A stretch of DNA of 64,000 nt from Trueperaceae bacterium (GTDB lineage: Bacteria; Deinococcota; Deinococci; Deinococcales; Trueperaceae). Made by a program: the position numbers and the translations under genes. This document shows positions 1,355 through 43,365 of the stretch, one piece after another (position 1 is the stretch's first letter; each line of letters opens with the position of its first letter). The stretch lies in contig JAXHLW010000013.1 of the NCBI GenBank assembly GCA_034521815.1, positions 1,568,001-1,632,000 on the forward strand, in the 5' to 3' direction. The notes below the pieces were generated by a model that saw only the letters and a list, made by a program, of their open reading frames with translations, was not told the origin of the DNA and made no database searches.

Positions 1355-1502
1355 GGCGTGGCACCGCTCGGAAAGAAGACCGTCATCTCGAACCTCGCTA
1401 TCGGACCCGTGTCGGGTCGATCCGTCGCATTTTCGCCTGCATCTCGCCAGCCCATGGCCCGCACCCCGCCCGTCAGGATAGGTGAAAGCGACGCGCCCGC
1501 CC

Positions 1503-1516
1503 AGGGCGTTCGTCCT
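1503..1516 (-). promoter_or_regulatory. Putative activator box AGGAC-GAAC-GCCCT upstream of the flavodoxin gene
   Basis: 22 nt upstream of TATCCT (1475-1480, minus strand); similar box and spacing recur at four other promoters. Confidence 0.55.
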
Positions 1517-1879
1517 TTGAATCGACGATGAGCGTGGCGCGCTCGAGATCCGGCGCACGACGCGTGGCGCGCGGTGCGGTGCTGGCGCGACGGTCGCTGC
1601 GCGCCGAAGTTCCGGCTCGCGCGCCGACGTGCGCGCGTCTTCAGCGGCCTGCTGGCGCACGCCGGTCGTGCGCTGACCTGCGTCGACTGGCGTCCTGCGG
1701 CGTTGCTCGCATTGTCGCGGGACTACGATGCGCGGCGTCGCGACTCGGGATGACGACGATGGCTGCTCGAGCACGATTCGCCAGCCCGGCCTGGTCACGA
1801 TCGCGGCATGGGTCGGACCGCGGCGGTCCGAGCCGCTCGCACGCTTCGCTTGCTGGCCTCGTCGCTCCGCGCCGCGCCT

Positions 1880-2620
1880 CGTCGACGTGCGGTGTGCTGC
1901 GGTCCGTGCTGTCCGGTGAGGCGAGCGACGACGGCGCATCGGTCGCGACCGGGCGTCGGTCGACCGCTGACCGATCGCGCGCGCTGGACACGGGCTTGCC
2001 GCGACCCGTCGACCCCTGGCGTGGCGACGCGCTCGTGCATGGCGGATCGCCGAGGCGGCGTCGCGACCTGTTCGACGCGTTCGACGACCATGGTCGGCGT
2101 CCGTCGACCGCGCTGCTGCAGCGCGTGCGCGCGATGCGACGTCGCCGTGCTCGAGGCTGGCCGCACGCGCGCAAGCGACGGTGCGCTGGCTTGGACGTCC
2201 CCGGCACTTGCAGTGAAGCGGACGCGCGCGCCATCGCCACCGATGACGATCTGCCGGTCGGTTCTCGGCCGTGGCTGGACGAGCGCCGACCAGTCGTGCG
2301 CCTACGTCGCAGGAGCGTCGAGACGCTGGACGAGGCGCAGGAGGCCGAGCTCGAGCAGTCTGTCCGCACGCTGCGACTGCGACCGGGCCGCAAGCTGCTG
2401 GACGTCGGCTGCCGCTCGCGCGCTCGGCGCTGACGGATGCGTCCGCGCCGAGACGTTCGGTACCCGGCGATCGGGTGCCGGCGAACGCGCCCAGGCCGTC
2501 GCCGTCGGACGGGTTTCTGTCGAGCGATCGTGATCGGCGTGTCGCGTGCAGGTCGCGATCACGTTCGGCAGTCGAGCACGTCGGGCGCAGCCGCGTACGA
2601 ATCGCTCCCGTCCGTCGACC
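1880..2620 (+). pseudogene. cfa: Degraded cyclopropane-fatty-acyl-phospholipid synthase remnant (boundaries approximate)
   Basis: Fragments in different frames: DARAIA-xx-DLPV..WLDER, SCAY, ETLDEAQEAELE..LRLRPGRKLLDVGC, VEHVGRSR. Confidence 0.65.
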
Positions 2621-2981
2621 ACATGCATCGCTTGGGCGGCTGGCGATGCGCCTTTCCGCAGGCCTGTGTCGCGGTATCGAACGCGCGGCGTGCGTGCAGC
2701 CAGCAGGTTCGCCGCACGAGAACCCGCTGCGAGGATCGCCGACCGACCGCGATCACGATCCGTGCAGCTCGAAGCGGTAGGTCGTTCGCGACGTCGACGA
2801 TCTGCCGACTACGTGGCGCATGATCCGGCTCCTGTCGTGGCACTTCGGAAGGTGTGCGTTGGCGCAGGCTGGCGCGCCGCTGGCGGACATGGAGGCGTAG
2901 TCGACCGTTCCCTCACGGCAGCTCAGTGACAGGTGGACCATGCGGCCCAAGAACATGGCGGCGGACGCCGACCGCGTACGC

Positions 2982-4418: not shown

Positions 4419-4437
4419 GGGGACTCCCGTCCGCGCG

Positions 4438-4488
4438 CTTCGGATGAAGAGCGTCTTCAGATGAACAGCGCCTTCAGATGAACAGCGT
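4438..4488. repeat. 17-bp tandem repeat x3 duplicating the 3' end and stop codon of the dsrE-like gene
   Basis: cttcggatgaagagcgt / cttcagatgaacagcgc / cttcagatgaacagcgt. Confidence 0.85.
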
Positions 4489-4971
4489 CTGCGCTCCCTC
4501 GGAGATGTCGAGGAACTCCGTCGCGCTGATGATCCCCTCGACCCCCTCGTACAGGTCGTCCTGGGTCAGCTTGTTCATGTCGGCCGACATGCGGCACGCC
4601 CACAGGTGGCCGCCGGCCTCGGTGATCATCTCCAGGAACTCGGGCACCGCCGGTACGTCCAGCTCGGCGATCTGCCGGCGCATCATGCGGGTGGCGACGC
4701 CTTGCATGCCGGGCAGCCCGGAGACGGCGGTCGGCATGTGCGTGGCGGGGTTCGCGACCGGCGTGAACTGGAGGTGCGCCATCGTCTTCTTGTTGATGAT
4801 CTCGTAGCCCCAGAAGGTGAAGAACAGGTGCGTCTCGATCCCCTCGCCCAGCGCGGCGTTGGCCAGGATCAGCCCCGGGTAGGCCATGTCCAGCGAGCCT
4901 TTCGAGCAGATGATGCACAGCTTGCGGTCGGGACCGTCGTCGAAGGTGGGCACGGGGCGCGGCGTGGTCAT
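4474..4971 (-). CDS. DsrE/DsrF/DrsH-like sulfurtransferase (DsrE2-type)
   Basis: IICSKGSLDMAYPGLILA, LFFTFWG, LWACRMSADM. Confidence 0.9.
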   Translation of the reverse strand: MTTPRPVPTFDDGPDRKLCIICSKGSLDMAYPGLILANAALGEGIETHLFFTFWGYEIINKKTMAHLQFTPVANPATHMPTAVSGLPGMQGVATRMMRRQIAELDVPAVPEFLEMITEAGGHLWACRMSADMNKLTQDDLYEGVEGIISATEFLDISEGAQTLFI

Positions 4972-4988
4972 GCGGATCTCCTAAGGCG

Positions 4989-5300: not shown

Positions 5301-5330
5301 CGTGCGGTCCTTTCTCATGCGCGCGCAGCG

Positions 5331-5657
5331 TCAGCGCATGCCCCTGATCGTCTTGAGCAGCAGCAGGACGTTGTCGCCGATCATGGTGACGCCCTCCCGG
5401 TCGAAGTCCTGCACGATGCGGTCGACCACCTCGGCGCTGGCGCCGAGCACCTCGCCGTAGCCGCGACCCTGCAGGCTGTCCAGCTTCGTCGTCGCGCCGT
5501 TCATGGCCTGCCTGAGCAGCGGCGTCATGTCGCGTGCGAACTCGTCGATGGCTTCCCAACGCTCGCGCGAACGACGGCTCTCGGCGGCGATCTCGGCCAG
5601 CTGCGTCTCCATCCGTGCGAGCTGGGCCTGCAGCGCTGCGACGTCCGGGGCGCTCAC
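5331..5657 (-). CDS. Short DUF1641-like SQR partner protein (appears C-terminally shortened)
   Basis: GTGA overlap with the sqr stop; coiled coil then D-x-TPLLRQA...LDSLQGRGY...IGDNVLLLLKTIR, as in proteins found between sqr and tusE. Confidence 0.6.
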   Translation of the reverse strand: MSAPDVAALQAQLARMETQLAEIAAESRRSRERWEAIDEFARDMTPLLRQAMNGATTKLDSLQGRGYGEVLGASAEVVDRIVQDFDREGVTMIGDNVLLLLKTIRGMR

Positions 5658-6922: not shown

Positions 6923-6994
6923 CGGGTCCTCCTCGCGTGCCGCGCGGCTCGTGCGACACGAACAGACGATGACGCACCGCGGTGAAGGCTGAAA

Positions 6995-7008
6995 GGGTGG
7001 AACGTCCC
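6995..7008 (-). promoter_or_regulatory. Putative activator box GGGAC-GTTC-CACCC upstream of the sqr operon
   Basis: 23 nt upstream of CATCGT (-10-like, 6966-6971 minus strand). Confidence 0.5.
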
Positions 7009-7036
7009 CGACGGAAACACGGCTCGCGCCGCTGGA

Positions 7037-10010: not shown

Positions 10011-10158
10011 GACGACCTCCAAGGTCCCGCACGCGTATAGGACGCGCGTCGCTGCGTCCGAAGTCGAGATCCGGCCTCAACCTAGCACCGGCTTCGCGTC
10101 GCTGACGCGATGTTCTCCACGGCGGGCTTCCTCGGACGAGCTCCTCGTAGGTCCTCGC

Positions 10159-14313: not shown

Positions 14314-14445
14314 GAAGCTCCCTTCGATGCTCTCGGTGTTGGATCCGAGTAATGTCGGATGCACGTATCCAAGTAAACCACATGCGTCCGCCCCTTGCCA
14401 AATGGCGGCACCCGCAGAGCCGGCTGGTGCAGTACGCTCGGAAGC

Positions 14446-19573: not shown

Positions 19574-19759
19574 ATGGACCTCATGAACATCGTCAACATC
19601 GCCGTACTGATCATCGTCGTGTACGTGGCGCTTCGTGTCGGCGCCGTTCTGCTGAAGGTGCTTCTCGGGCTGATCGCGATCGGGTTGGCCGTCTGGCTGA
19701 TCGCCGGCCTGTTCGGGGGCGTGCCCGTCGGCGCATCCGCCGCGACGGTCTGGTGGTAG
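19574..19759 (+). CDS. Small two-TM membrane protein
   Basis: 61-aa hydrophobic ORF with SD-like GAAGGGA. Confidence 0.6.
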   Translation: MDLMNIVNIAVLIIVVYVALRVGAVLLKVLLGLIAIGLAVWLIAGLFGGVPVGASAATVWW

Positions 19760-19771
19760 GACATTCGGCTG
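19758..19771 (+). promoter_or_regulatory. Putative activator box AGGAC-ATTC-GGCTG upstream of hemN
   Basis: 23 nt upstream of TACCCT (19795-19800), which is 5 nt before the hemN GTG; only the left half-site is good. Confidence 0.45.
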
Positions 19772-19805
19772 GCGCACGGAGGCGGCGCTGCGGGTACCCT
19801 GACGT

Positions 19806-23477: not shown

Positions 23478-23479
23478 CC

Positions 23480-24073: not shown

Positions 24074-24112
24074 CGGCAGCTCCTCATCGGCAGCTCCTCA
24101 TCAGCAGATCCG
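24071..24112. repeat. 14-bp tandem repeat containing SD + ATG at the hypE/BFD junction
   Basis: Minus strand cggatctgctgATG aggagctgccgATG aggagctgccgATG. Confidence 0.85.
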
Positions 24113-25163
24113 CGGCAGCTGCTCTTCGATCGGCATCTCGAGCAGCCTTCGGCTGCCGTACGCGGTCTCGATCAGCGCCACCCCTTCGGGCTTCTTCACG
24201 ATGTCGCCGATGACGGCGGCCTCGCGCCCCAGCGGGTGCGCCTTCATGGCGCCCAGCGCCGCCTCGGTCTGGTCGGGCGGCACGACCATCATCACCTTGC
24301 CCTCGTTCGCGGCCAGCAGCGGGTCGATGCCCAGCATCTCGCTGTACTGCTCGACGATGTCGTGGATCGGTACGGCGACGTCGAACACGCGCAGCCCGAA
24401 CGCGCGCCGGTGCACGACCTCGTTCGCGACGGCGGCCAGCCCGCCCCGGGTCACGTCCCGCATGAAGCGGACGCCGGGCGCGACCTCCAGGACGCGCGCG
24501 ATCAGGCCGTTCAGCGGCGCGACGTCGGACTCCAGCTCCACGCCCAGCTCCAGCCCTTCGCGCCGGGACATCACCGGCGATGCCGTGGTCGCCCAGCGTG
24601 CCGTTGACGAGCACCTTGTCGCCGGGCCGAATCTGGCCCAAGCCCAGCGTCAGGCCGTCGGGAACGAACCCGATGCCGGCGGTGTTCACGAACAGGCCGT
24701 CGCCCTTGCCGCGTTGCAGCACCTTGGTGTCGCCCGCGACGATCTCGATGCCCGCCTCGTCCGCGGTGGCCTTCATGGAGCGGACCACGCGCTCGAGCTC
24801 GTCCATGTCGTAGCCCTCCTCGAGCAGGAAGGCCGCCGTGAGGTAGGCCGGTCTCGCGCCCATCACGGCCAGGTCGTTCACCGTTCCGGCCACCGCCAGG
24901 CGACCGATGTCGCCGCCGGGGAAGAAGGTGGGCGTCACCGTGTGCGAGTCGGTCGCGAACGCGATCCGCCCGCCCGGGTTGGCCACGATCGCGGCGTCGG
25001 TGAGCTCGCGCAGCGGCTCGTTGCTGAAGACCGAGACGAACAGCTCCTCGATCAGCTCCAGGCTGAGCTTGCCGCCCGAGCCGTGCGCCAGCCGGACGGT
25101 GTCGTACCGCGACGTCGTCTTGGGCTGGGCGGCGGTGGCCGCTCCTTCAGGCGGTTTCGACAT
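24101..25163 (-). CDS. hypE: Hydrogenase maturation carbamoyl dehydratase HypE with one-base frameshift at about 24575 (sequence error or pseudogene)
   Basis: AHGSGG, ATDSHTV.P.FFPGGDIGRLAVAGTVNDL, GDTKV in one frame; MRDVTRGG, ANEGK, EQLPRIC in the next. Confidence 0.9.
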
Positions 25164-26403
25164 GGAGCGTCTCCTTGTGCATGCCGTAGACGTACCAGGC
25201 TCGGCAGGTGCCCTCGTGGCTCACCATGCACGGGCCGTAGGGGGCGTCCGGCGTGCACAGCTTGCCGAACACGCCGCACTCGTCGGGCCGGATCTGCCCC
25301 AGCGTCACCTCGGCGCAGCGGCAGCCCTTGGGATGCTCGGCGCCGGCCAGCTCGGCCTCGTCCAGGCTGTCCGCGAAGCGCAGGGCGGCGCTGTACGACC
25401 GGTACGCCTCGCGCAGCTTGTAGCCCGAGGCGGGGATCTCGGCGATGCCGCGCCAGCGGATCGGGGCGAGCTCGAACACCTCGTTCAGCTCCTGCTTGGC
25501 GCGCTCGTTCCCGTCGTACTTGACCAGTCGCTGGTACGGGTTCGCGACGATCGGCTCGCCGTCGCGGATCTGCTCCAGCAGCGACGCGACGGAGGCCAGC
25601 ACGTCCACGGGCTCGAACCCGCCGGCAGCGCAGGCGATGCCCAGCTCGTTCAGGTGCTCGTACACCCGCAGGCCGGTGATCGTCGCGGCGTGCCCCGGCA
25701 GGATGAACCCCTCGATGTCGAAGCCCTCGAGCTGCGGCAGGATCGCGGTGGCCGGCGGCGTGTAGTAGTTCGCCTCGATGATGCTCAGGTTCGCCGGCGC
25801 GCCGCGCTTCAGCATGGCGGCGACGGCGACGACGGTGGTCTCGAACCCGACGGAGAAGAACACCACCTCGCGGTCCGGGTTCTCGCGCGCCAGCTTGGCG
25901 GCGTCGAACACGCTGTAGACGGCGCGTACGTCGCCGCCCTGAGCACGCGCGTCCAGCAGGCTCATGCGCACGTCGCCGCGGCGCTCGCCCTTCAGGGGGA
26001 TGCTGCCGGGCACGGCCAGCATGTCGCCGAACGAGGCGAGGATCACGCCGGGCGTGAGCGCCAGCTGAATCGCCATGTTGATGTACTCGTTGTCGCACAC
26101 GCAGACCGGGCAGCCCGGCCCGGCGAGCACCTCGACGCTGCTGGGAAGAAGGTCGCGAAGCGCGTAGCGGCCGATCTCGTGCTCGTGCGTGCCGCAGATG
26201 TGCATCAGCTTGGTGGGGCGGCCGATCTCGCCTGCGAGCTCCGCGATGCGCCTCTGCAGGCGCCCGACCAGCTCGGCGTCCTTGTACGTCTCGGGCCGGA
26301 AGTCGAACGCCGGCCCCGCCTGGGGGTCGGCGCTCTGGGCTCCGCCGCTCTGGGTTCCACGGTCGGGCGCCGGCGCGACCGCCACGTCGTCCCTCTCAGG
26401 CAC
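25147..26403 (-). CDS. hypD: Hydrogenase maturation protein HypD
   Basis: CGTHE, GPGCPVC, GFETT, PGH, C-terminal Cys cluster GCRC...C...C...GPCMVS.EGTC. Confidence 0.95.
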   Translation of the reverse strand: MPERDDVAVAPAPDRGTQSGGAQSADPQAGPAFDFRPETYKDAELVGRLQRRIAELAGEIGRPTKLMHICGTHEHEIGRYALRDLLPSSVEVLAGPGCPVCVCDNEYINMAIQLALTPGVILASFGDMLAVPGSIPLKGERRGDVRMSLLDARAQGGDVRAVYSVFDAAKLARENPDREVVFFSVGFETTVVAVAAMLKRGAPANLSIIEANYYTPPATAILPQLEGFDIEGFILPGHAATITGLRVYEHLNELGIACAAGGFEPVDVLASVASLLEQIRDGEPIVANPYQRLVKYDGNERAKQELNEVFELAPIRWRGIAEIPASGYKLREAYRSYSAALRFADSLDEAELAGAEHPKGCRCAEVTLGQIRPDECGVFGKLCTPDAPYGPCMVSHEGTCRAWYVYGMHKETLHVETA

Positions 26404-26626
26404 GGGTCTCGGGCTCCAGGTAGCGCTGGATCAGGCGCAGGTTGGCCTTGGCGTCGTCCGGCTCGATCTTGTCGATGGCGAAGCCGGCGTGCACGACGAC
26501 CCAGTCGCCCGGTTTCAGGTCCTCGATCAGGCCGATGAAGCAGTGTTGCGTCGCCTGGCCCAGTCGGATCGTGCAGCTGTCCTGGTCGATGACGTCGACC
26601 ACCTCGTGGGGAATCCCTAGACACAT
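26396..26626 (-). CDS. hypC: Hydrogenase chaperone HypC/HupF
   Basis: MCLGIP N-terminus, GDWVVVHAGFAI. Confidence 0.95.
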   Translation of the reverse strand: MCLGIPHEVVDVIDQDSCTIRLGQATQHCFIGLIEDLKPGDWVVVHAGFAIDKIEPDDAKANLRLIQRYLEPETRA

Positions 26627-26712
26627 GTCGAGCCTCCAGCTCTGGTGCCGTGCTCGTGAATCTGCAGCCCGTAGACGCCCGACACCCCCGGCGCCCGCTG
26701 GTGGACCGGTGC

Positions 26713-27432
26713 TCAGGCCAGCTTCGCGGCGCGCTGTTCGCGCAGCCAGGCCAGCCAGGGAGCCATGCCTTCGCCCGTCCTCGCGGAGAGCTCGAACAGC
26801 TTGGCGTTCGGGGTGACCTGGCGCACGCTTTCCAGCGCGCGATCGCGATCGAACCCGACCGCCTCCGCGATGTCGATCTTGTTGATGATCACCGCGTCCG
26901 CGTCCTTGAAGATGCGGGGGTACTTCAGCGGCTTGTCCTCGCCCTCGGTGACCGAGAGCATCGTGACCCGCAGGTCCTCGCCCAGGTCCCAGGCGGCCGG
27001 ACAGACCAGATTGCCGACGTTCTCGATCACGACGACGTCGAGGTCGTCGAGGTCCAGGCCGTCCACCGCGCGGGCCACCATCTCGGCTTCCAGGTGGCAC
27101 ACCGCGCCGGTCACGATCTGGACGGACGGCGCACCGGCCCCGTGCAGGCGGACCGCGTCGTTGTCGGTCTCCAGGTCGCCGACGACGACGCCGATGGCGA
27201 GGTCGCTCGCGAGCTCCCGGACGGTGCGCTCCATCAGCGCGGTCTTGCCCGATCCGGGCGAGGAGACGATGTTCAGCACCAGGCGTCGCGCGAACCGGGT
27301 CCGGTTCTCGGCGGCCACCCCGTCGTTGTGGGTCATCAGCGACTTCTGTACCTGGACGACGCGCATGTCCGTGCCCGCGGACGTGCCGTGGGCACGGACG
27401 CGTACATCGCGTGTCGCGACCTTCGTTTCCAT
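26713..27432 (-). CDS. hypB: Nickel-insertion GTPase HypB
   Basis: SSPGSGKT, CHLEA, ENVGNLVCPA, EGEDKPLKYP. Confidence 0.95.
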   Translation of the reverse strand: METKVATRDVRVRAHGTSAGTDMRVVQVQKSLMTHNDGVAAENRTRFARRLVLNIVSSPGSGKTALMERTVRELASDLAIGVVVGDLETDNDAVRLHGAGAPSVQIVTGAVCHLEAEMVARAVDGLDLDDLDVVVIENVGNLVCPAAWDLGEDLRVTMLSVTEGEDKPLKYPRIFKDADAVIINKIDIAEAVGFDRDRALESVRQVTPNAKLFELSARTGEGMAPWLAWLREQRAAKLA

Positions 27433-27475
27433 CAGGCGACCTCCCTCTTCGTCGTTGGCCCCATCATGTCACCTC

Positions 27476-27823
27476 TCACACCACTTCGAGATGGGCGAGC
27501 TGTAGCTCGCGCCCTTGGCGGAGGTCGGCGGACGGCGTCCCGCAGGTGGGGCACAACGCGACGCCGTAGCGGTTGTCGAGCTCGAAGCTGGCGTCGCACA
27601 GGCCGCAGTGCGCGATGGCGGGCAGGTAGTCCACCTCGAGCCGCGCATCCTCGGCCATGGTGCCGAGGCGAGCTCCGGAGAACGCGAACTCCAGCGCCTC
27701 GGGAACGACGCCCGCGAGGGCGCCGATCTCGAGGTGGATCGCGTCGATGCGTGTCGCGCCGTCGTCCCGCGCCGTCTTCTCCGCGAGGTCCAGCATGCTC
27801 ATCACCAGCGAGAACTCATGCAT
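27476..27823 (-). CDS. hypA: Nickel chaperone HypA
   Basis: MHEFSL, two CxxC motifs, GRELQL. Confidence 0.95.
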   Translation of the reverse strand: MHEFSLVMSMLDLAEKTARDDGATRIDAIHLEIGALAGVVPEALEFAFSGARLGTMAEDARLEVDYLPAIAHCGLCDASFELDNRYGVALCPTCGTPSADLRQGRELQLAHLEVV

Positions 27824-28373
27824 GGGCCAACACGATCTCCTCGGCGCTGAACACGTCGTCGGCCCGCATCTCCGGCCGGACGATCTGGGGCGTGACGCCG
27901 TGCGTTTCGAGCTCGCGAAGCACGACGGTGGCCAAGGCGTCCATGCGACCACGCACCGTCGGCGTGAGTCCCACGCCCACCTCGCCGCTCTCGAACTCCA
28001 GGGGAGCGACGCCGATGCCGACGATCGTCACGTCGGGCAGGTCCCCGTACAGGTCCATCGCGGTGAGCAGGTCGGGAACCTCCCACTCGTGAGAGGACAG
28101 CTTGCCGTAGCCGATCTCGTCGGGAACCTCGCCCCGCCCGAAGCGATACACCTTTCCGGGCGGGGCGGCGACGGCGTCGACCAGCACGACGTGCCGGTAC
28201 TCGGCGATCAGGTTCAGCAGCTGCCAGCCCAGCGTCCCGCCGTCGACGATCTCGACGTGGTCCGGGAAGGCGTACTTGCTGCGCAGGTAGTGCATCAGGT
28301 GCACGCCCGCGCCCTCGTCGCCGTAGTACACGTTTCCGACGCCGAGCACGAGGAGCGGGCGTGCGTCGCTCAT
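27816..28373 (-). CDS. hyaD: Hydrogenase maturation endopeptidase (HyaD/HupD family)
   Basis: VLGVGNVYYGDEGAGV, DGGTLG, VDAV, SSHE. Confidence 0.92.
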   Translation of the reverse strand: MSDARPLLVLGVGNVYYGDEGAGVHLMHYLRSKYAFPDHVEIVDGGTLGWQLLNLIAEYRHVVLVDAVAAPPGKVYRFGRGEVPDEIGYGKLSSHEWEVPDLLTAMDLYGDLPDVTIVGIGVAPLEFESGEVGVGLTPTVRGRMDALATVVLRELETHGVTPQIVRPEMRADDVFSAEEIVLAHA

Positions 28374-29230
28374 GAGGTCTCGTCCCTCTTCGAATCGCGC
28401 GTCGCGCGCTTGGTCGTGCGCTTCGCCGTCGGCGCGCTGCTCGGCTCGACGGCGTCGACCTCTTCGGCCCCCGCTTCGCGCGTGGTGGCGTCCTGGGCCG
28501 CGAAGCCGGAGATGATGCCCTCGACCAGCATGTTGCCGGTCCGCATGCTGTTCCAGACCGCCATGTAGATGTGGACCATCGTGAACACGACGAAGAACCA
28601 CATCGCGACGTGATGGACCATGCGGACGTTGGCGAGGCCGCCCAGCCAGACTTGGATCGGGCTCAGCAGGTTCGCGCCGAACGTCGCCAGCCCGCCCTGC
28701 ACGTACGGTGCCGCGATCAGGATGCCGGTGACGCTGATGACCAGCAGCGCGGCGTAGAGGAGCGTGTAGACGAGGTACTGAAGCGGGCCGTAGTTGCTGT
28801 ACGTGAAGTGCGGGTGCTCGCGCTTCATCAGCAGGTAGAACGCCAGCTGATCGCGCCACGCCTTCCAGTTGAACAGGATCGGCGCCATGCGGAGCTCCGC
28901 ACCGAGACCCAGCTTGCCCTCCCGGTTGATGAACAGGAACTGGTAGATCCGGGCCAGCGTGAACGCCAGCAGCAGCCAGCCGGCGGCCACGTGCCAGCCG
29001 CGAATCTGCGCCAGCATGAAGTTGTCGGCCGTTGCGACGCCCAGGTTGCGTGCGAAGAACGGGTTGGCGAGGTAGATGCCGCTCAGCACCAGCCAGATCA
29101 GCAGCGCGTTGCGGACCCAGTGCGTGATCCGCACGAACCGTCCGAAGACGTACACCACCATCTTCGGGCGGCCCTTGCGCTCCATCACGACCGCTCTGGG
29201 CCTACCGGCACGGGTCGTGTCGGTCGTCAC
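28370..29230 (-). CDS. hyaC: [NiFe] hydrogenase b-type cytochrome subunit
   Basis: VRITHW, RGWHV, YGPLQ, RMVHH..MWFFVVFTMVHIYMA heme-ligand His pattern. Confidence 0.9.
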   Translation of the reverse strand: MTTDTTRAGRPRAVVMERKGRPKMVVYVFGRFVRITHWVRNALLIWLVLSGIYLANPFFARNLGVATADNFMLAQIRGWHVAAGWLLLAFTLARIYQFLFINREGKLGLGAELRMAPILFNWKAWRDQLAFYLLMKREHPHFTYSNYGPLQYLVYTLLYAALLVISVTGILIAAPYVQGGLATFGANLLSPIQVWLGGLANVRMVHHVAMWFFVVFTMVHIYMAVWNSMRTGNMLVEGIISGFAAQDATTREAGAEEVDAVEPSSAPTAKRTTKRATRDSKRDETS

Positions 29231-29233
29231 GCG

Positions 29234-30925
29234 TCACACCTCCACTTCGTGGTGCGCGATCTCCTCGCCGTCGCGGTTCAGGATGTGCACCGCGCAGGCG
29301 AGGCAAGGATCGAACGAGTGGATGGTGCGCACGACCTCGAGCGGCTGGGTGGGGTCGGCCATCGGCTGTCCGACCAGCGCGGACTCGTACGCGCCCCGCT
29401 GCTCGCGGCCGTCCTTCGGGCTGGCGTTCCAGGTCGAGGGAACGACCGCCTGGTAGTTCGAGACCGATCCGCCCTGAACGGTGAGCCAGTGGCTCAGGCT
29501 GCCGCGCGGCGCTTCCGCCATCGCCCAGCCGGGCCCGTCCTTGGCGTCGTAGCGGTTGAAGAACCGGTCGTCGCCGTTCGAGACGTTCGCGGTGAGGTTC
29601 CCGATCATGCTGGGCACGTAGTCGGAGACGATCTTCGTCTCGAGTCCGCGGGCCACGGTGCGGCCGACGGTGGAGTACCAGAACTCGAACGGAACCCCGA
29701 GCTGCGAGGTGTAGTCGTCCATGATCGTACGGACCGACTCGTTCCCGCCGGCGTAGGCGATCAGCATCCGCGCCAGCGGGCCGACCTCGACCGGCATGCC
29801 GTCGTAGCGCGGCGACTTGATCCAGGAGTAGCTGCCTTCGGTCTGAAGGGTGTTGTCGTCCGCGAAGCCGGTGTAGGCGGGGTTGGTCTGGCCGTCGAGC
29901 GGGTGGAGCGAGTCCTCGCCGCCTTCGTACGTGTACCAGGAGTGCGCGACCTCTTCGCCGATGAGCATCGGGTCGATCGTCCGCACCGTATCCAGGTCGC
30001 GGTCGACGATCAGTCCGGGCTGGAGGAAGAACGCGCGGTTCTCCCACGGGCGCTCGTCCAGCGAGATGGCGCCGAAGCTCATGTAGTTGCGCAGGCCGCC
30101 GCCTTCGCCGGCGAGCGCCTCTTCACGGTAGCGATCGCCGATCAGGGCCATGTCGGGCAGGTACGCCCGCTCGACGAAGTCGGCCGCCTTGGCCATGAGG
30201 AACTGGTACTCGGCGATCCGGTGCGCATCCAGGGCGTCGCGGGCGGAGGTGATGCCGCCGACGATCAGGCTCTGCGGGTGGGGGTTCTTGCCGCCGAAGA
30301 TCGCGCTGGCCTTGGCGCTGAGCCGCTGGATCGCCAGGTTGTCGAGGTAGTGCGAGGCGACGATCAGGTTCTCTTCCGGCGTGAGCCGGTACTTGGGGTG
30401 TCCCCAGTAACCGCCGGCGAACGGTCCGAGCTGGCCGCTCTGGACGAACGCGAGCAGCCGCTCGGCGACCGCGCGATAGTGGCTGACCGAGGCGTTGTAC
30501 GGCTTGTCGTGGTACTGCATCGCGACGTCGGTCGCGGCTTGCGGATCGGCGTCGAGCGCGCTGACGACGTCGAACCAGTCCATCGAGTGCAGCTGGTAGA
30601 AGTGCGTGGTGTGGTCGTTCACCAGCTGGGCGGCCCAGATCAGGTTGCGAAGCATCCGGGCGTTGGGGGGGATGGTGACGCCGTACGCGCTCTCGGTCGC
30701 CTCGACGCCGCGCTCGTAGTGGTGGTAGGTGCAGACGCCGCAGATGCGTTGCGCGAACAGGCCGACGTCCTTGGGATCGCGACCCCGCATGATGCTCTCG
30801 AAGCCGCGGAAGGCGGTGCTGCTGCTGGCGGCCTCCTCGACCGTGCCGGCGTCGCCGACCTCGATCTCGATGCGGAGATGCCCCTCGATGCGGGTAATGG
30901 GATCGATGACGTGTTTAGCGGCCAC
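29234..30925 (-). CDS. hyaB: Group 1 [NiFe] hydrogenase large subunit
   Basis: DPITRIEGH, QRICGVC (L1), SFDPCLACAVH (L2) plus cleavable tail. Confidence 0.97.
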   Translation of the reverse strand: MAAKHVIDPITRIEGHLRIEIEVGDAGTVEEAASSSTAFRGFESIMRGRDPKDVGLFAQRICGVCTYHHYERGVEATESAYGVTIPPNARMLRNLIWAAQLVNDHTTHFYQLHSMDWFDVVSALDADPQAATDVAMQYHDKPYNASVSHYRAVAERLLAFVQSGQLGPFAGGYWGHPKYRLTPEENLIVASHYLDNLAIQRLSAKASAIFGGKNPHPQSLIVGGITSARDALDAHRIAEYQFLMAKAADFVERAYLPDMALIGDRYREEALAGEGGGLRNYMSFGAISLDERPWENRAFFLQPGLIVDRDLDTVRTIDPMLIGEEVAHSWYTYEGGEDSLHPLDGQTNPAYTGFADDNTLQTEGSYSWIKSPRYDGMPVEVGPLARMLIAYAGGNESVRTIMDDYTSQLGVPFEFWYSTVGRTVARGLETKIVSDYVPSMIGNLTANVSNGDDRFFNRYDAKDGPGWAMAEAPRGSLSHWLTVQGGSVSNYQAVVPSTWNASPKDGREQRGAYESALVGQPMADPTQPLEVVRTIHSFDPCLACAVHILNRDGEEIAHHEVEV

Positions 30926-30928
30926 GGT

Positions 30929-32176
30929 TCACTGCTCCTTCTGCTTGCCCTGGCGCTGCTCCTGGGCGGACTTGATGGCGGTGGCTCCAGCGTGAGCCGC
31001 GACGCCGACGGCGGCCGCTCCGAGCACGACCTTGCCGATGGTGTCGGCGTTGGCGTCGGTGCCGAACGGGGTCGAGTACACACGCCCGGCGAGGGGCTGC
31101 TCGAACGGGGTCATGGTGTCCCAGAAGCCGGGCTCGCTACAGCCGATGCAGCCGTGGCCGGCCATGATCGGCCAAGACGCGCCCTCGTTGAAGCGCACGA
31201 CGCCGCAGTTGTTGAACGCCATCGGGCCTTTGCAGCCGACCTTGTACAGGCAGAGGCCGTCCTTGAGACCTTCGATGTCGGTCCAGCCCTCGACGAACTC
31301 GCCGGCGTCGAAGTGGCCGCGGCGCTCGCACTTGTCGTGGATGCGATCGCTGTACGCCCAGAGCGGCCGGTTGAACGCGTCCAGCGACGGCAGCCTGCCG
31401 AACAACGCGTACTCGAGGATCGTTCCGGTCACGTTCGTGCTGGACACCGGGCAGCCGGGCAGGTTCACGACCGGCTTGGAAACGCCGCGCTGACCCAGGA
31501 AGTCGCCGACGCCCAGCGCCGTGGTGGGGTTGGGGCGCGCGGCGGGGATCCCGCCGTACGCGGCGCAGGTGCCGGCGTTGATCACGGCGGCCGCGTGCGT
31601 GGCGACGTGCTCCACGATCCGGGTTCCGGTATGGCCGTCGGGGCCGATGGTGAGGAAGTTACCGTCGTCGCCGATCGGGACGGAGCCTTCGAACACCGCG
31701 ATGTACTGTCCGTCGAAGCGCTCGATCGCCGCCTCGAGCACGGCGTCGGCCTGGTGGCCGGACGGGGCCATCAGCACCTCGGCGTACTCGAGACTGATCA
31801 GGTCGAGGATCAGCTCGTCCACGCCGGGGTTCGTGTTGCGGATGAGCGCCATGCTGTTCCCGGTGCACGACTGCAGCTCTTGCCAGATGACCGGGATGCG
31901 GGTCGCGACCTCTTGGGCGCGAGCGACGCGCAGGTCGAACATGGAGGGAAGGCCGAGGGTCGCGGTCGTGACGGCGGACATCTTGAGGAAGTCGCGGCGC
32001 GAGAGGCCGCGGCGCTTGAGCACGTCTTCGAGCGAGACGTCCTTGAGGGGCGCCTGCGCCTCGAGGCGATCGAGGTTGGCGTCGGCCTCCGCGGCCAACA
32101 TCTCATAGTGCTCCAGGGTTCTCCGGTCGAGATTCGCCTGGGCGTCGGGGTCGTGCTTCCTCGGTGTTTGCGTCAT
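30929..32176 (-). CDS. hyaA: [NiFe] hydrogenase small subunit (Tat signal, C-terminal TM anchor)
   Basis: SRRDFLK, CTGN, GTCAAYGG, PGCP, HDKC, CLYKVGCKGP, CIGC. Confidence 0.97.
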   Translation of the reverse strand: MTQTPRKHDPDAQANLDRRTLEHYEMLAAEADANLDRLEAQAPLKDVSLEDVLKRRGLSRRDFLKMSAVTTATLGLPSMFDLRVARAQEVATRIPVIWQELQSCTGNSMALIRNTNPGVDELILDLISLEYAEVLMAPSGHQADAVLEAAIERFDGQYIAVFEGSVPIGDDGNFLTIGPDGHTGTRIVEHVATHAAAVINAGTCAAYGGIPAARPNPTTALGVGDFLGQRGVSKPVVNLPGCPVSSTNVTGTILEYALFGRLPSLDAFNRPLWAYSDRIHDKCERRGHFDAGEFVEGWTDIEGLKDGLCLYKVGCKGPMAFNNCGVVRFNEGASWPIMAGHGCIGCSEPGFWDTMTPFEQPLAGRVYSTPFGTDANADTIGKVVLGAAAVGVAAHAGATAIKSAQEQRQGKQKEQ

Positions 32177-32359
32177 GCGCTCCTCCTCGCGCTGTCCGTC
32201 CCCGACGTTTCGCCGAGGCGACCGAGGGGCTCCCCGGTCCACGATCACGGTCTAGGCTGCGGAACTCCTGCGTCGATCTCGGGTCTTCGCCGTCAGGTGA
32301 GTGCGGCAACCTCGCTTACGTGATGCGACGAAAGTAGCAGCCGGAGGCGTCGCCGTCGC

Positions 32360-32373
32360 GGGACATCGGTCCT
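32360..32373 (-). promoter_or_regulatory. Putative activator box AGGAC-CGAT-GTCCC upstream of the hydrogenase operon
   Basis: 23 nt upstream of TACTTT (32331-32336, minus strand). Confidence 0.65.
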
Positions 32374-39150: not shown

Positions 39151-40094
39151 TCAGCGCGCCGTAGCCTCCAGCACGTCGTGCGCCAGCCGGTGGGTCTCGA
39201 GCGCGTCCTCGATGTCGCAGTACAGACGCGAGCGGTCTCCTGTCCGCACGGCGTGCAGGAACGCACGGTTCTGTGCCACGAACGGATCGCCTTGGGTGCG
39301 CACCTCGCGCACGACGTGACCGTCGTCGTAGCGGACCGCGTCCTGGGTGACGACCACGTGCAGCCCGGTGCACACCAGCTCCAGCCGGATCCAGGAACGC
39401 CCGCCCAGCGCGCAGGTCGCGGTGACCGTCCCCGGGATGCGCGCGGGGAACTCCAGCAGCGTCGCGGCGACGTCGGCGACGTCCGCGCCGGGCAGCAACG
39501 GAACCTCGGGAGTCGCGCTCCGGGCGGCGACGACGTCCGCCTCGCCGACCAGGTGGCGCGCCAGGTCCAGCAGGTGCGTCGCCTGCTCGACCATCTGGCC
39601 ACCGCTGCGCGCCTCTTTCGCCACCACGGGGGCGCGGGAATCGCGTCGTGCCATGCGCCCGTCACCATGCGGACGGGCGCCTCTGCGAGACGCTCACGCA
39701 GCTCCGGAAGGGTGTCCAGTGCACGCCAGTGGTAGCCGACGGCCACCAGCGCGCCGGCGTCCAGCGCCGCTCGGGCCAGCTCCTCGCCGGTGGCGCGGTC
39801 GGCCGACAACGGCTTCTCGAGCAGGTACGGCACCTCCGCGGCCAGCAGCGCCCGCTCGGCCGGTCCGTGTGCACCGGGTGGCACGGTGATCCAGGCGGCG
39901 TCGGGCCGCTCGCGGTCCACGAGCTCGGCGACGTCGTCGTAGGCACGGCCGCCGAACAGCGTGGCGTGGCGCTGGGCGGACGCGCGCGTCCGAGCGACGT
40001 GCCCGCCGATCTCGACGCCCTCCTCCCGGGCCAGCACCTCGAGGTGGCGCCGGGCGATTCCGCCGGCTCCGATCATCACGACACGGGTCGTCAT
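39151..40094 (-). CDS. Gfo/Idh/MocA oxidoreductase with one-base frameshift at about 39617
   Basis: IGAGGIA, LEKP in one frame; SGGQMVEQATHLLDL in the next; break at an A run (cga-aa-gag). Confidence 0.85.
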
Positions 40095-40348
40095 CGTTCG
40101 CCTCCGTTCGGCAGGTGGGGCGCCTCGTCGGACGCCGCCTCGGTGGCCAGGACCACCTGGAGCGCCGCGTCCGGCGCCTCGTCCAGAAGGCGGAACGCCT
40201 CTGACGCATCGTCGAACGGCAGCACGCGGCTGACCAGGCCGGACAGGTCCAGCGTACCGTCCGCTTGGAGATCCATGATCGTGGCGATCAGCCGGGCGTG
40301 CTCGATCACGACCTGGCGAGGAGCTTCGGTGGTGACGATACCGGCCAT
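40091..40348 (-). pseudogene. Internally deleted Zn-binding (MDR) dehydrogenase remnant
   Basis: N-terminal strand (IVTTEAPRQVVIE) joined directly to typical C-terminus (LDLSGLVSRVLPFDDASEAFRLLDE..ALQVVL); SD GGAGG retained. Confidence 0.6.
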
Positions 40349-40363
40349 GGTGCCTCCGGAGGG

Positions 40364-40401
40364 GTCGTCGGACGCGCCGACCCGACGGCGCGTCCGACGA
40401 C
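40364..40401. terminator. 16-bp-stem hairpin downstream of the SCO gene
   Basis: gtcgtcggacgcgccg-acccga-cggcgcgtccgacgac. Confidence 0.55.
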
Positions 40402-40430
40402 GGTCGCTCCAGGTTAGCGCCGCACGCTGC

Positions 40431-41129
40431 TCAGCGTTCCGGCTCGCCGGCCGCGACGACCGCCCGAACCGCCGGCTCCACGGGCCGGCCCAGGCCCTCT
40501 TCGCTGTGCACCACGACGCCGCCCCCGTCCAGCACGCTGATCAGGTTGGTGTGGCTGAACATGCCGTTCCCGGCCGGCCGGTAGCGTACGCCCAGCAGCG
40601 CGGCGAGGGCGCGGGTGGCGTGAGCGTCGCCGACCGCGAACCGCCAGGCAGGATGCTCGGTGCCGGTCGAGGCGACGTAGCTCGCGAGGCGCTCGGGGGC
40701 GTCGCGCTCGTGGTCGAAGCTGACGACGAGCACCTGCGTGTCGGCGCGCGCTGCGTCCGGCAGCGCCTCGTACAGGCGCTGGACGTCGCCGACCAGGATG
40801 GGGCAGGCGGTCTCGCAGCTCGCGTAGATCATCGTCACGATCACCGGTCCACCGCGCAGGTCCTCGAGCCGTAGCGCCTCGCCGCGATGATCGGTCCAGT
40901 CGGCGTCCAGGTGGTAGAGCGAGGCCCCCGGAAGCGGCGCGTCGCTGGACAGCGCGGTCGGATGGTCGACGTGCGCAGGCGCGGGATCGTCGACGTGGAG
41001 GAGCTCGGCGGGGGCCACTCGCGCATCGTCAGCACTGGACGGGCCGCAGCCCCAGGTCCAGGCGAGGGCGATCAGCAGCGCCAGCGCGCGCACGATCGTG
41101 TGTCGGGAACGGCGGGTCGGGGTCGGCAT
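40431..41129 (-). CDS. SCO1/SenC copper chaperone (probable lipoprotein)
   Basis: YASCETACP CxxxC, FSH conserved His. Confidence 0.9.
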   Translation of the reverse strand: MPTPTRRSRHTIVRALALLIALAWTWGCGPSSADDARVAPAELLHVDDPAPAHVDHPTALSSDAPLPGASLYHLDADWTDHRGEALRLEDLRGGPVIVTMIYASCETACPILVGDVQRLYEALPDAARADTQVLVVSFDHERDAPERLASYVASTGTEHPAWRFAVGDAHATRALAALLGVRYRPAGNGMFSHTNLISVLDGGGVVVHSEEGLGRPVEPAVRAVVAAGEPER

Positions 41130-41161
41130 GGGGATCTCCTCGGAGTTGGACGGGGTGGGCG

Positions 41162-41974
41162 TCAACGGGCGCAGCGGAACCCGACCGACCCGGTCACCGA
41201 CGCGGGGCCTAGGGCCGTGCGAACGGCGTGACGGAGGAAGGCGGGGTAATCGTCGCGATCACGTGCGCCCAGGCTGGCTCCGCCGCAGACGCGGGCGACG
41301 TCGCGGTCGCCGATGTTGCGGCTGTCGCCCTGGACGATGCCGCTCCACGGATCCTCGACCCATTCCCAGACGAGCCCGTGCAGATCGTGCACGCCGTAGA
41401 GGTTCGGCGCTGCCCGGCCCACGCGGGGCGGCGCGGCGTTCCTGCGGGCGTACGCCGCGAGACGCTCGGCCTGGACGACCGGATCGTCGCTGGCGTCGGC
41501 ACGGTCGACGCCTGCGCGGGCGGCGACCTCCCATTCGTCCTCGCTGGGGAGGCGCAGGCCCCGGGCGTCGCAGTAGGCTCCGGCCGCGAACCAGCTGACG
41601 TTCGTGACCGCGGCGTCGGCGGGCGTGTCGCCCAGATCGGTGGGGCCGGCCCAGTGCGCCAGGTAGCCGGGGTCGGCGAAGATCTCGGGCGGCGCGCCCT
41701 TGGCCCAGTCGGGATGGTCGCGGACGAAGGCGAGGTAGTCCGCGTTCGTGACCGGCACCACCGCGATCTCGAACGCCGGCACCTCGTGCGGGCCTTCGCC
41801 GGCGACCGGGTAGAACGGCGCGTAGGTCGTCGCAGGGACGGAGGCGAGCGGCTGGCTGAACGCGGCGCCCACCAGCAGGGCGGACAGGAGGAAGAGGACG
41901 CGCGCCAGGCCGGCTGGCGCGCGGTCGGCGGGCGTTGCGGCAGGGGCGTGCGCATGGCGGGGGGCCGGGGTCAT
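41162..41974 (-). CDS. FGE-sulfatase domain protein (NirV-like)
   Basis: PVTNADY, VSWFAA.AYC, RLPSEDEWE, DLHGLVWEW, GFRCA; directly downstream of nirK. Confidence 0.85.
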   Translation of the reverse strand: MTPAPRHAHAPAATPADRAPAGLARVLFLLSALLVGAAFSQPLASVPATTYAPFYPVAGEGPHEVPAFEIAVVPVTNADYLAFVRDHPDWAKGAPPEIFADPGYLAHWAGPTDLGDTPADAAVTNVSWFAAGAYCDARGLRLPSEDEWEVAARAGVDRADASDDPVVQAERLAAYARRNAAPPRVGRAAPNLYGVHDLHGLVWEWVEDPWSGIVQGDSRNIGDRDVARVCGGASLGARDRDDYPAFLRHAVRTALGPASVTGSVGFRCAR

Positions 41975-42044
41975 GGCGGGCGTCTCCTCTCCTGCGAGAT
42001 CGCGGTCCGGGCACGCTGGGCACCCGGACCGCGGGAGCGAACGA

Positions 42045-43274
42045 TCAGTTCGCGGGGAGGTCGGGAGCGTCGGCGGGATCGAACGGACGCTCGTACTGGC
42101 GCTCGCTGTAGATCTCGTGGTCTTCCTCGCCGACGACGACGATCTGTCCGAGCGTGCCCTTGTGGAAGGTCCGGAAGATGCTGTGGTCGACGAGGTTCAG
42201 CGTCGAGGGAACCTCTGCGCGGAACTCGACCATCGCGGAGCCGCCGGCGGGAACGAGCGTGGTCTGGACGTTCTCGTTCACCATCATGCCGCCCTCGACG
42301 TACACCCGGTCGAAGATCTCGCCGATGACGTGGAAGCTCGAGACGAGGTTGGGGCCGCCGTTGCCGACGAACAGCCGGACGGTCTCGCCCACTTCGGCGT
42401 GCAGGGCGTTCTCGCCGGCGATGGCGCCGACCCGGCCGTTGAACAGGACGTAGCTGGGGTCCTCGTCGATGGCGCGCTGCATGTCGAACGGCTGGTGGCC
42501 GGGCTCGCCGAAGTCGCCGGGGGTGTAGAAGTCGCCCTGGACGACGTAGTACTCGCGGTCCACCTCGGGGTAGCCCTCTTCGGGCTCGACCACGATCAGG
42601 CCGTACATGCCGTTGCCGATGTGCATCCCGACGGGCGCGGTGGCGCAGTGGTAGATGTACACGCCCGGGTTCAGGGCGCGGAAGGTGACGCCGGTCTCGT
42701 GACCCGGCATGGTCAGCGTCGCCTCGGCGCCGCCGCCGGTGCCGGTCACGGCGTGCAGGTCGATGTTGTGCGGCATGGCGCTCTCGTGCGAGTTCTTGAA
42801 GTTCAGGCGGACGGCGTCGCCCTGGCGGACGCGGATCATCGGGCCGGGAACGCTGCCGTTGAACGTCCAGAAGGTGTAGTCGACGCCGTCGGCGATCTCC
42901 ATCGTCTCTTCGGTCGAGATGAACTCGACGTCGACCAGCGCGGGATGGTCGCGGTCGACGGGCGGCGCGGCGTTCGGGGCGTAGCCGAGCTCGGCTTCGA
43001 CGACGGGCAGGTCGGCGACGTCGACGAGCTCGACGGGAGCGAGCGCTTCCTCGGGCATCGTCACGTCGTGACCGGTGGAGGTGTCCTGGACGTGCTGGAC
43101 GATGGGCTGGGCGGCAGGCTGGACGGGCGCCGCGTCGACGCGGGTGGACGCTCCGCGGTCGACCAGCCAGCCGGTGGTGCCGATCGCCAGGACGCCGAGC
43201 GCGAGAACGATCGCGACGAGGGCGGTGCCTCCGTCGATGGACGTGCGGTTCTGGGTGGAGCGGGGAATCTTCAT
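42045..43274 (-). CDS. nirK: Copper nitrite reductase with N-terminal TM anchor, copy 2
   Basis: [46 protein letters not shown]. Confidence 0.93.
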
Positions 43275-43351
43275 CGGGTCTCTCCTCCTTGGGCTCCGAT
43301 CTATCTCGGAGTTGATGGTCGGAGAATATCTGCGACATCCACGTCCGAGTA

Positions 43352-43365
43352 GGGACGAGTGTCCC
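43352..43365 (-). promoter_or_regulatory. Perfect palindromic box GGGAC-ACTC-GTCCC upstream of nirK-2
   Basis: 23 nt upstream of TATTCT (43323-43328, minus strand). Confidence 0.7.

Follow-up and report, generated by a model that had tools for sequence, protein, structure and literature searches.

A palindromic RGGAC-N4-GTCCY element at a fixed distance from predicted -10 hexamers of respiratory genes in Deinococcota: a candidate transcription factor site

Introduction

Among the described systems, the closest to the subject of this work is the denitrification island of Thermus thermophilus. According to the accessible parts of the published accounts, this bacterium lacks FNR and NarXL, the promoters of the island are induced by anoxia and nitrogen oxides, DnrT (a CRP family protein of the DNR subgroup) binds around position -43 at CCTTCACCTTACTCCTTGACCCCGGTCAT in Pnrc, and DnrS, a protein with GAF and BTAD domains whose DNA binding could not be assayed, is the presumed oxygen sensor; Pnar and Pdnr need DnrS whereas Pnrc and Pdrp do not (PMC5748679, PMC6282519, PMC7694296). 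As far as the available part of one of these accounts goes, NsrR, an Fe-S protein of the Rrf2 family that is reported to be a dual regulator, shifts PnirS, PnirJ and PnorC and has been assigned to the palindrome CTTGACCNNGGTCATGG, and NarG expression is independent of NsrR (PMC5748679). Here we analyze another palindrome, RGGAC-N4-GTCCY (hereinafter, the RGGAC box), in a 64 kb stretch of DNA with 71% G+C (the window) that comes from contig JAXHLW010000013.1 of a Trueperaceae bacterium, where the box precedes genes for a copper nitrite reductase, a [NiFe]-hydrogenase and, probably, a flavodoxin-like protein.

The window and the Thermus island belong to the same phylum and share the same 14-bp box, in both cases before respiratory genes and at a fixed distance from a TANNNT hexamer. 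They differ in this distance, 23 nt in the window lineage as compared to 13 nt (in T. parvatiensis, 12 nt) in Thermus, where the box covers the -35 position, and in the targets, because neither the hydrogenase nor the flavodoxin is part of the Thermus island. Moreover, the element published for Thermus is a different palindrome, the one assigned to NsrR, which in the accessible accounts overlaps the DnrT site at about -43. The window contains no match to this palindrome (TTGACC-NN-GGTCA) with one mismatch or fewer, and it shares with the RGGAC box only the inner GAC-N4-GTC.

Two other types of sites are similar in layout. The class II sites of FNR, DNR and NnrR (TTGAT-N4-ATCAA, at -41.5) are also 5-N4-5 inverted repeats located 22-23 nt from the -10 element of promoters with a weak -35 element, and nirK, hydrogenase and hemN are among their typical targets; however, only two of the five half-site letters (G3 and A4) agree with the box, there is no CRP family gene in the window, and neither TTGAT-N4-ATCAA nor the DNR/DnrT-type TTGAC-N4-GTCAA is matched there with up to one mismatch. 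The mycobacterial DosR/DevR box, TTSGGGACTWWAGTCCCSAA, resembles the RGGAC box in its core and spacing, and in the hypoxia and NO physiology of the regulon, but differs in that T9 and A12 are not found here, in the phylum, and in that no NarL-type regulator is in view. The proximal DosR box lies near the -35 region.

Five candidate sites in the window

The gene map of the window was built from Pfam and NCBIfam searches with 140 + 42 + 24 candidate open reading frames (ORFs) and a codon-usage gene caller; by this map, 9.1% of the window is non-coding, in 42 intergenic segments. An earlier note on this DNA had described the box, at a fixed distance from -10-like hexamers, before five respiratory and heme promoters. 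All five 14-mers are present, four on the minus strand and the one upstream of hemN on the plus strand, and the spacing to the hexamer is 23 nt for nirK-2, the hydrogenase operon, sqr (sulfide:quinone reductase) and hemN, and 22 nt for the HemG-like flavodoxin gene, as described. The five sites are, however, unequal: two are strong (nirK-2 and hydrogenase, no mismatches to RGGAC-N4-GTCCY), one is probable (HemG-like, one mismatch), one is doubtful (hemN, three mismatches), and one is at the chance level (sqr, two mismatches).

The nirK-2 box, GGGACactcGTCCC (43352..43365, minus strand), is a perfect palindrome located 23 nt upstream of the -10-like hexamer TATTCT (43323..43328, minus strand), which predicts a transcription start site (TSS) at about 43316 and a leader of about 40 nt. 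The box of the hydrogenase operon, AGGACcgatGTCCC (32360..32373, minus strand), is an exact match to the motif, with no mismatches to RGGACNNNNGTCCY, and is followed after 23 nt by TACTTT (32331..32336, minus strand); the TGc that precedes this hexamer suggests an extended -10 element (TGcTACTTT). The probable site, AGGACgaacGCCCT (1503..1516, minus strand), is located 22 nt upstream of TATCCT (1475..1480, minus strand) in the promoter of the flavodoxin gene. The hemN sequence, AGGACattcGGCTG (19758..19771, plus strand), retains a half-site only, 23 nt before TACCCT (19795-19800), and is a possible but unsupported site, whereas the sqr sequence, GGGACgttcCACCC (6995..7008, minus strand), which is followed by a poor -10 element (CATCGT), was excluded from the element.

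Reckoned from the -10-like TANNNT hexamers, the box is predicted to extend from about -49 to -36, with the center at about -42.5. At the -35 position, the box promoters have poor hexamers (TACTCG, GCGACG and TGGGCG, that is, two or three of the six consensus positions). The poor -35 hexamers fit class II activation, and the center, as predicted from the -10-like hexamers, would be near the class II activator position that the earlier note had proposed. The three window promoters (nirK-2, hydrogenase and HemG-like) carry a single box each, with no second box at up to one mismatch nearby, and no TANNNT is found on the other strand 21-24 nt from the box, toward the divergent M24 peptidase and MFS genes.

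Two other intergenic or upstream copies with one mismatch were rejected. One of these, GGGACTCCCGTCCG (4420-4433), precedes by 8 nt the start codon (ATG) of the first protoporphyrinogen-oxidase-like gene, overlaps the GGGAG ribosome-binding site of this gene and lacks a -10 hexamer at the right distance, and was accordingly treated as a chance match; the other one (10039-10052), upstream of a hydrolase gene, also has no -10 hexamer at the right distance.

Intergenic enrichment and fixed spacing

The exact box occurs twice in the 64 kb, compared to 0.56 expected. As two copies are also reached in 13 of 100 shuffles of the whole window, this count proves nothing by itself; with up to one mismatch, the strict consensus has 5 matches compared to 6.6 expected. 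The picture is different when location is considered. Both exact boxes, those of nirK-2 and the hydrogenase operon, are intergenic, and so are 5 of the 11 boxes with one mismatch or fewer. When the 42 intergenic segments were dinucleotide-shuffled 1000 times, the expected numbers were 0.049 for exact boxes (2 observed, P=0.003) and 1.07 for boxes with up to one mismatch (5 observed, P=0.004). At two and three mismatches, the intergenic share is that of the background (8 of 98 matches, or 8%, and 84 of 797, or 10.5%, respectively), and therefore the sqr and hemN boxes are indistinguishable from chance by sequence.

The spacing is a stronger argument than the box counts. The composite pattern RGGAC-N31/32-TANNNT has four matches in the window, all of which are intergenic and in the sense orientation, before the genes for the HemG-like protein, HemN, HydS and NirK-2. 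Across all spacings from 0 to 80, the mean number of intergenic matches per spacing is 0.21, with three matches at spacing 32, one at spacing 31 and no more than one at any other. The comparison with shuffled DNA, which the earlier note had suggested, comes out in favor of the box for the intergenic segments, and the scan of spacings has a unique peak at 31-32. With the three good palindromes removed, the half-site count comes down to a single match, that of hemN, compared to about 0.42 expected, which is not significant, and the sqr-type pattern RGGAC-N31/32-CANNNT has eight matches, seven of them inside genes.

Conservation of the box in front of nirK

For comparison, NirK-2 was used as the query against genome contigs, and the best 80 of the 588 stretches encoding a relative (1.34 Mb) were scanned. 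The two closest matches are L001 and L008. In L001, a metagenome-assembled genome (MAG) with 73% G+C, a NirK 77% identical to NirK-2 and the same M24 peptidase-nirK-nirV gene order, the nirK promoter contains GGGACgaacGTCCC followed after 23 nt by TAAACT; in L008, labelled uncultured Trueperaceae, in which NirK is 59% identical over residues 2-408, AGGACatctGTCCT is followed after 23 nt by TAATTT. Thus, both orthologous nirK promoters carry the exact box, the 23 nt spacing and the TANNNT hexamer, so that for nirK the site is conserved in orthologous promoters, a point that the earlier note had proposed to check in relatives. In the alignment of the window with L001, all 10 arm positions are identical, three of the four central bases differ, and there is no conservation upstream of the box. 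In L008, where the spacer is not alignable, the two outer positions of the arms have undergone matching changes (G to A, and C to T); judging from the sequence, such a symmetric change is what would be expected under selection on a dimer site.

Altogether, the 80 loci contain four exact boxes (two in L001, one in L008 and one in the Kangiella locus L057), three of which are just upstream of nirK (L001, L008 and L057), and a box followed by 22-24 nt and TANNNT is found only at the L001 and L008 nirK promoters. With up to one mismatch, six sites lie within about 400 nt before nirK, four of them being the sites named for the exact boxes. The exact box is absent from the other 76 loci, which are mostly from Proteobacteria and other phyla. 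A tblastn search with NirK-2, HydS and HemN against the plasmid collection gave no Deinococcota among the listed matches or organism tallies.

Several additional features of these loci deserve mention. L001 contains a second, letter-identical box, GGGACGAACGTCCC (11089-11102), 69 nt upstream of a gene for a 679-aa beta-lactamase-family serine hydrolase. Two nirK loci of Kangiella (Gammaproteobacteria, 44-45% G+C) contain GGGACATTTGTCCC (L057, 9748-9761) and GGGACATATGTCCA (L061, 9794-9807), some 140-170 nt upstream of where the nirK frame has its first start codon, and a canonical DNR-like box, CTGATccagATCAA, is located about 75 nt further downstream; at this G+C content, the Kangiella boxes are very unlikely to be due to chance. 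In the 5' leader of nirK (window 43275-43322; L001 763-838), an inverted repeat, CTCCGAGA...TCGGAG, is kept in the window and in L001 just before the ribosome-binding site.

The same box in the Thermus denitrification island

In the scanned part (299,999 of 440,026 bp) of the megaplasmid pTHTHE1601 of T. thermophilus SG0.5JP17-16, there are seven exact boxes; four are inside annotated protein-coding sequences, and the remaining three, all intergenic, belong to the denitrification island (L083, 5372-5418 and 9327-9359; L084, 42728-42771; NC_017273.1). All three are located 13 nt upstream of a sense-strand TANNNT, before dnrS, nirS and a ywiC-like gene. In the nar/dnrS intergenic region, GGGACATCTGTCCT is followed by 13 nt, TAGGCT, 8 nt and the ATG of dnrS. 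The nirS promoter contains two boxes, with GGGACttttGTCTT abutting AGGACatctGTCCT, which is followed by 13 nt and TATCCT; the second of these boxes, AGGACATCTGTCCT, is letter-identical to the nirK box of L008. In the nsr cluster, GGGACTTCCGTCCC, 13 nt and TACCCT precede the ywiC-like gene by 30 nt. In addition, the intergenic region of norC and nsrR contains a copy with one mismatch, GGGACgttcGCCCT, directly next to the published palindrome, and in Thermus parvatiensis, whose DnrS is 60% identical, GGGACATTTGTCCT is followed by 12 nt, TACCCT, 8 nt and the ATG of dnrS.

The difference between the spacings in Thermus (13 nt) and the window lineage (23 nt) is exactly one helical turn. The presence of the box in respiratory promoters of at least Thermales and the Trueperaceae-like clade thus points to a shared cis-element, the phase of which is fixed within each lineage. 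In our scan of the island, the TTGACC-NN-GGTCA palindrome was found at Pnrc, Pdrp, PnirJ, PnorC and PnsrS. The RGGAC box was found at Pnar/Pdnr, at PnirS and, with one mismatch, at PnorC, all of which are DnrS-dependent, and was absent from Pnrc, Pdrp and PnirJ. By this sequence comparison, the presence of the box appears to track the reported DnrS dependence in six of seven Thermus promoters.

Predicted function of the box and the candidate factor

On balance, we consider it probable, although far from assured, that RGGAC-N4-GTCCY is a genuine dimeric transcription factor site that is conserved in Deinococcota and is predicted to mediate class-II-type activation of respiratory genes. Under this interpretation, a dimer would bind at about -49 to -36 in promoters without a usable -35 hexamer, replace the -35 contact and recruit RNA polymerase. 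The likely targets would be nirK-2, together with nirV and sco1, and the operon of the membrane-bound [NiFe]-hydrogenase with its hyp genes; the flavodoxin (HemG-like) gene would be a probable target, hemN with the downstream protoporphyrinogen-oxidase-like gene (here hemY2) a possible but doubtful one, and sqr would be outside the target set. The sequences show that the box exists, is enriched, keeps a fixed spacing and is conserved at nirK, whereas activation, the signal and the identity of the factor are inferred. By analogy, the signal is most likely anoxia and/or nitrogen oxides, because the same box is found at Thermus promoters controlled by anoxia and N-oxides.

The factor is encoded outside the window. 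As the earlier note had observed, there is no plausible cognate regulator within it, none of the 164 ORFs having a CRP, GerE/LuxR, Rrf2 or GAF-BTAD domain; the regulators that are present comprise an OmpR-type response regulator with a kinase, an ArsR/SufR-like protein, a TetR fusion, a GreA-like protein and a SARP-AAA-TPR protein. The leading candidates, both putative, are DnrS-type proteins and CRP/DNR-type proteins. A DnrS-type oxygen sensor with the GAF-winged helix-turn-helix (wHTH)-BTAD architecture ranks first, although it is still less likely than not to be the factor. In DnrS, the winged-helix segment before the BTAD domain can be aligned to the SARP protein of the window, and PF00486 is found in most DnrS homologues. 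Such homologues are encoded in Meiothermus, Calidithermus, Marinithermus and, with 48% identity over 99% of the query, in a Truepera sp. MAG. A site that ends 13 nt before the -10 element and replaces the -35 element is in the usual place for PhoB/SARP-type winged-helix activators. The more far-reaching version of this proposal is speculative and, we believe, rather unlikely as a whole: RGGAC-N4-GTCCY would be the DNA target of DnrS-type GAF-wHTH-BTAD sensors, which would govern an anaerobic regulon across Thermales and Trueperaceae that is extended here to H2 oxidation and a flavodoxin/heme step, with the site moved by one helical turn. A CRP/DNR-type factor with altered specificity is a less likely possibility; it fits the 5-N4-5 geometry and the position of about -42.5 in the window lineage, but the co-occurrence of the RGGAC box with the DnrT-assigned TTGACC-NN-GGTCA palindrome in PnorC implies two different factors.

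Two observations concern genes of the DnrS type rather than the box. The SARP-type gene at the edge of the window (1-705) was considered as a DnrS ortholog and rejected, only the wHTH-BTAD part being shared (26% identity, E 3e-6) and its relatives having no GAF domain. In three Deinococcus plasmids (L087-L089), DnrS-like GAF-BTAD genes are located directly downstream of a conserved cluster that encodes an MFS protein, molybdopterin oxidoreductase, 4Fe-4S, Rieske and DUF6755 proteins and a nitrate/nitrite transporter, which suggests a DnrS-linked nitrate module in Deinococcus.

A number of observations weigh against the activator site interpretation or limit its reach. All promoter positions are reckoned from -10-like hexamers and predicted TSSs. 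Among the target promoters, the cross-genome comparison covers those of nirK only. Even at nirK, the promoters of the window and L001 are orthologs that can be aligned downstream from the box (17 of the 23 spacer bases are identical by manual count on the alignment), so that their agreement partly reflects shared ancestry, and the second box of L001 has TAGCGA instead of TANNNT at 23 nt. The upstream region of nirK-1, the other nitrite reductase gene in the window, contains no RGGAC box. The 13 nt spacing in Thermus makes the box overlap the -35 position, which would also suit a repressor. With regard to DnrS, winged helices of the SARP/OmpR type usually bind direct rather than inverted repeats, none of the three Deinococcus plasmids with DnrS-like genes carries an exact box, and PnirJ is DnrS-dependent yet lacks the box, which is what reduces the correlation to six of seven. 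Finally, there is no box with up to one mismatch in the nsrR-nirK divergon of Deinococcus ficus.

Alternative explanations

It appears very unlikely that the palindromes arose by chance or belong to some structural or repeat element without a regulatory role. The whole-window count, taken alone, is not significant, and the 5-bp stem with its 4-nt loop would form a weak hairpin, but this explanation accounts neither for the intergenic enrichment and the unique spacing peak, nor for the conservation of the nirK box in two further lineages with identical spacing, nor for the restriction of the intergenic copies in Thermus to denitrification promoters. At the other extreme is the proposal of the earlier note that all five promoters form one regulon, in which H2 oxidation, sulfide oxidation, nitrite reduction and O2-independent heme synthesis are induced together. 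In all five cases, RGGAC is located 31-32 nt from a YANNNT hexamer, in the sense orientation and in intergenic DNA; nevertheless, the two mismatches and the CANNNT hexamer of the sqr site and the three mismatches of the hemN site are at the levels where background prevails, and with sqr at the chance level and hemN admitted on a half-site only, the five-promoter regulon is overstated and improbable. What stands is a positioned element before nirK-2, the hydrogenase operon and, probably, the flavodoxin gene. We regard as similarly improbable the suggestion, also from the earlier note, of a DosR/DevR-type site for a response regulator of the NarL/LuxR family. The core GGGAC-N4-GTCCC is identical to that of the DosR consensus in the accessible part of its description (exact match at nirK-2, 9 of 10 positions at the hydrogenase operon; PMC2275270), the half-site spacing is the same, and DosR regulons respond to hypoxia and NO. 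The resemblance, however, does not go beyond the core. Within the available text on DevR, the protein contacts G4G5G6A7C8T9 and its promoters need at least two tandem boxes (PMC3177182), whereas the window sites are single and T follows RGGAC in none of the 10 half-sites compared (nirK-2, hydrogenase and HemG-like in the window, L001 and L008). The TTS/SAA flanks of the 20-bp site are not kept either, a GerE/LuxR-type regulator is found neither among the 164 window ORFs nor in the L001 and L008 stretches, and T. thermophilus carries the box although it has no NarX/NarL homologues according to the parts of the accounts that deal with them (PMC5748679, PMC7694296).

A more serious, although still unlikely, alternative is that the box is the operator of an NO-responsive, NsrR-type Rrf2 [Fe-S] regulator, which would be primarily a repressor or else have a dual role. 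One indication comes from L008, where an Rrf2 gene and nirK diverge from an intergenic region that contains the box; the product of this Rrf2 gene is 50-53% identical to the Rrf2 protein encoded next to norCB on Thermus megaplasmids, that is, NsrR, and 57-59% identical to those encoded on Deinococcus plasmids (in a tblastn search against plasmids, it matched 33 records, 20 from Thermus, 2 from Deinococcus and the rest from rhizobia, the D. ficus copy being divergent from nirK). Furthermore, NsrR represses the Thermus nirS promoter, which has two adjacent boxes, and shifts the corresponding fragment in an electrophoretic mobility shift assay, in the part of the study that we draw on (PMC5748679), and at PnorC the copy with one mismatch abuts the NsrR-assigned palindrome. 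The published deletion fragments of PnorC, as far as they are described in the accessible text, remove both the box and the NsrR palindrome and thus cannot separate the two (PMC5748679). In the same text, NsrR also shifts the PnirJ fragment, which lacks the box, the NsrR assignment is to the other palindrome, and NarG expression does not depend on NsrR, despite the exact box at Pnar/Pdnr (PMC5748679). In addition, D. ficus has the same nsrR-nirK divergon without the box, no Rrf2 gene adjoins the box in the window or in L001, and a strictly fixed distance to the -10 element in unrelated promoters (nirK and hydrogenase) is not required of a repressor.

Genes of the window

The nirK-2 gene (42045..43274, minus strand) encodes a copper nitrite reductase (TIGR02376, 361.8 bits compared to the cut-off of 296.3), and its ATG at 43274 is preceded by GGAGGAGAG. 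It is followed by a NirV-like gene of the FGE-sulfatase family (41162-41974) and then by a SCO1/SenC gene (40431-41129), both identified with Pfam. The second nitrite reductase gene, nirK-1 (12922-14313), encodes a protein with an N-terminal cupredoxin domain or extension and has a different palindrome, TTGGATacgtgcATCCGA (14355-14372), upstream; with the RGGAC box absent there, the two nitrite reductases are probably under different regulation.

The operon of the membrane-bound, group-1-type [NiFe]-hydrogenase (24084..32176, minus strand) encodes HydS, HydL, cytochrome b and a HyaD-like protease, followed by hypA, hypB, hypC, hypD and hypE. The hydS gene (30929-32176, minus strand) starts with the ATG at 32176 behind GAGGAGGAG, and its product has a twin-arginine translocation signal; hydL (29234-30925), the cytochrome b gene (28370-29230) and the protease gene (27816-28373) are on the same strand. 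The hypE gene is apparently frameshifted, with the N-terminal half in the frame 24084-25163 (model positions 2-175) and the AIRS_C half in another frame (24101-24574), and is either a pseudogene or the result of an assembly error.

The flavodoxin gene (815..1354, minus strand) encodes a Flavodoxin_5 protein (Pfam, 86 bits); with the NCBIfam HemG model, the score is 30 bits compared to the cut-off of 142, and HemG-like is accordingly a label at the level of the family. The SARP-AAA-TPR regulator gene (1-705, minus strand), which contains wHTH and BTAD domains and is cut by the window edge, is located 109 nt downstream and might be co-transcribed from the box-bearing flavodoxin promoter. Its full-length relatives are SARP-AAA-TPR proteins of about 1150 aa without a GAF domain; the named ones are encoded in a Trueperaceae MAG and in a bin of a soil metagenome that carries the tag 'DEI', which, together with the Trueperaceae label of L008, supports the Deinococcota lineage proposed in the earlier note, with Trueperaceae as the closest relatives that have a name.

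The sqr gene (5654-6922, minus strand) encodes a type III sulfide:quinone reductase that scores above the cut-off of the NCBIfam model for the selenoprotein subtype (583 compared to 525 bits) and yet is an ordinary uninterrupted ORF. Downstream on the same strand are an unassigned 108-aa ORF and genes for TusE/DsrC and DsrE2. The 3' end of dsrE2, immediately before the first protoporphyrinogen-oxidase-like gene, contains three tandem copies of a unit of about 17 nt (GCTGTTCATCTGAAG-like; 4440-4495). The window also contains two gene remnants, a C-terminal GFO/IDH/MocA fragment without the Rossmann domain (39151-39594), which is intact in L001, and a GH65 reading frame that overlaps an ion-channel gene (48868-50508).

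Implications

Literature string searches yielded no description of the RGGAC-N4-GTCCY motif, with only the 10-mer GACATCTGTC appearing, in unrelated eukaryotic or viral topics, among the matches listed, and the box is not mentioned in the accessible parts of the Thermus accounts (PMC5748679, PMC6282519, PMC7694296). The kind of element, an activator palindrome of an anaerobic regulon, is known; new are its sequence, its distribution in Deinococcota, the position shift by one helical turn and the inclusion of the hydrogenase. If the box is in fact an ordinary operator of an NsrR or CRP-type factor, the result would amount to a routine regulon prediction. In Deinococcota, as far as the Thermus accounts go, anaerobic genes are controlled without FNR or NarXL, and the box is a concrete candidate site that is common to the nar/dnr, nirS and ywiC-like promoters of Thermus and the nirK and hydrogenase promoters of the Truepera-like group. 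It offers a way to predict anaerobic regulons of uncultured Deinococcota from sequence only and, in the Truepera-like group, would link H2 oxidation to nitrite respiration.

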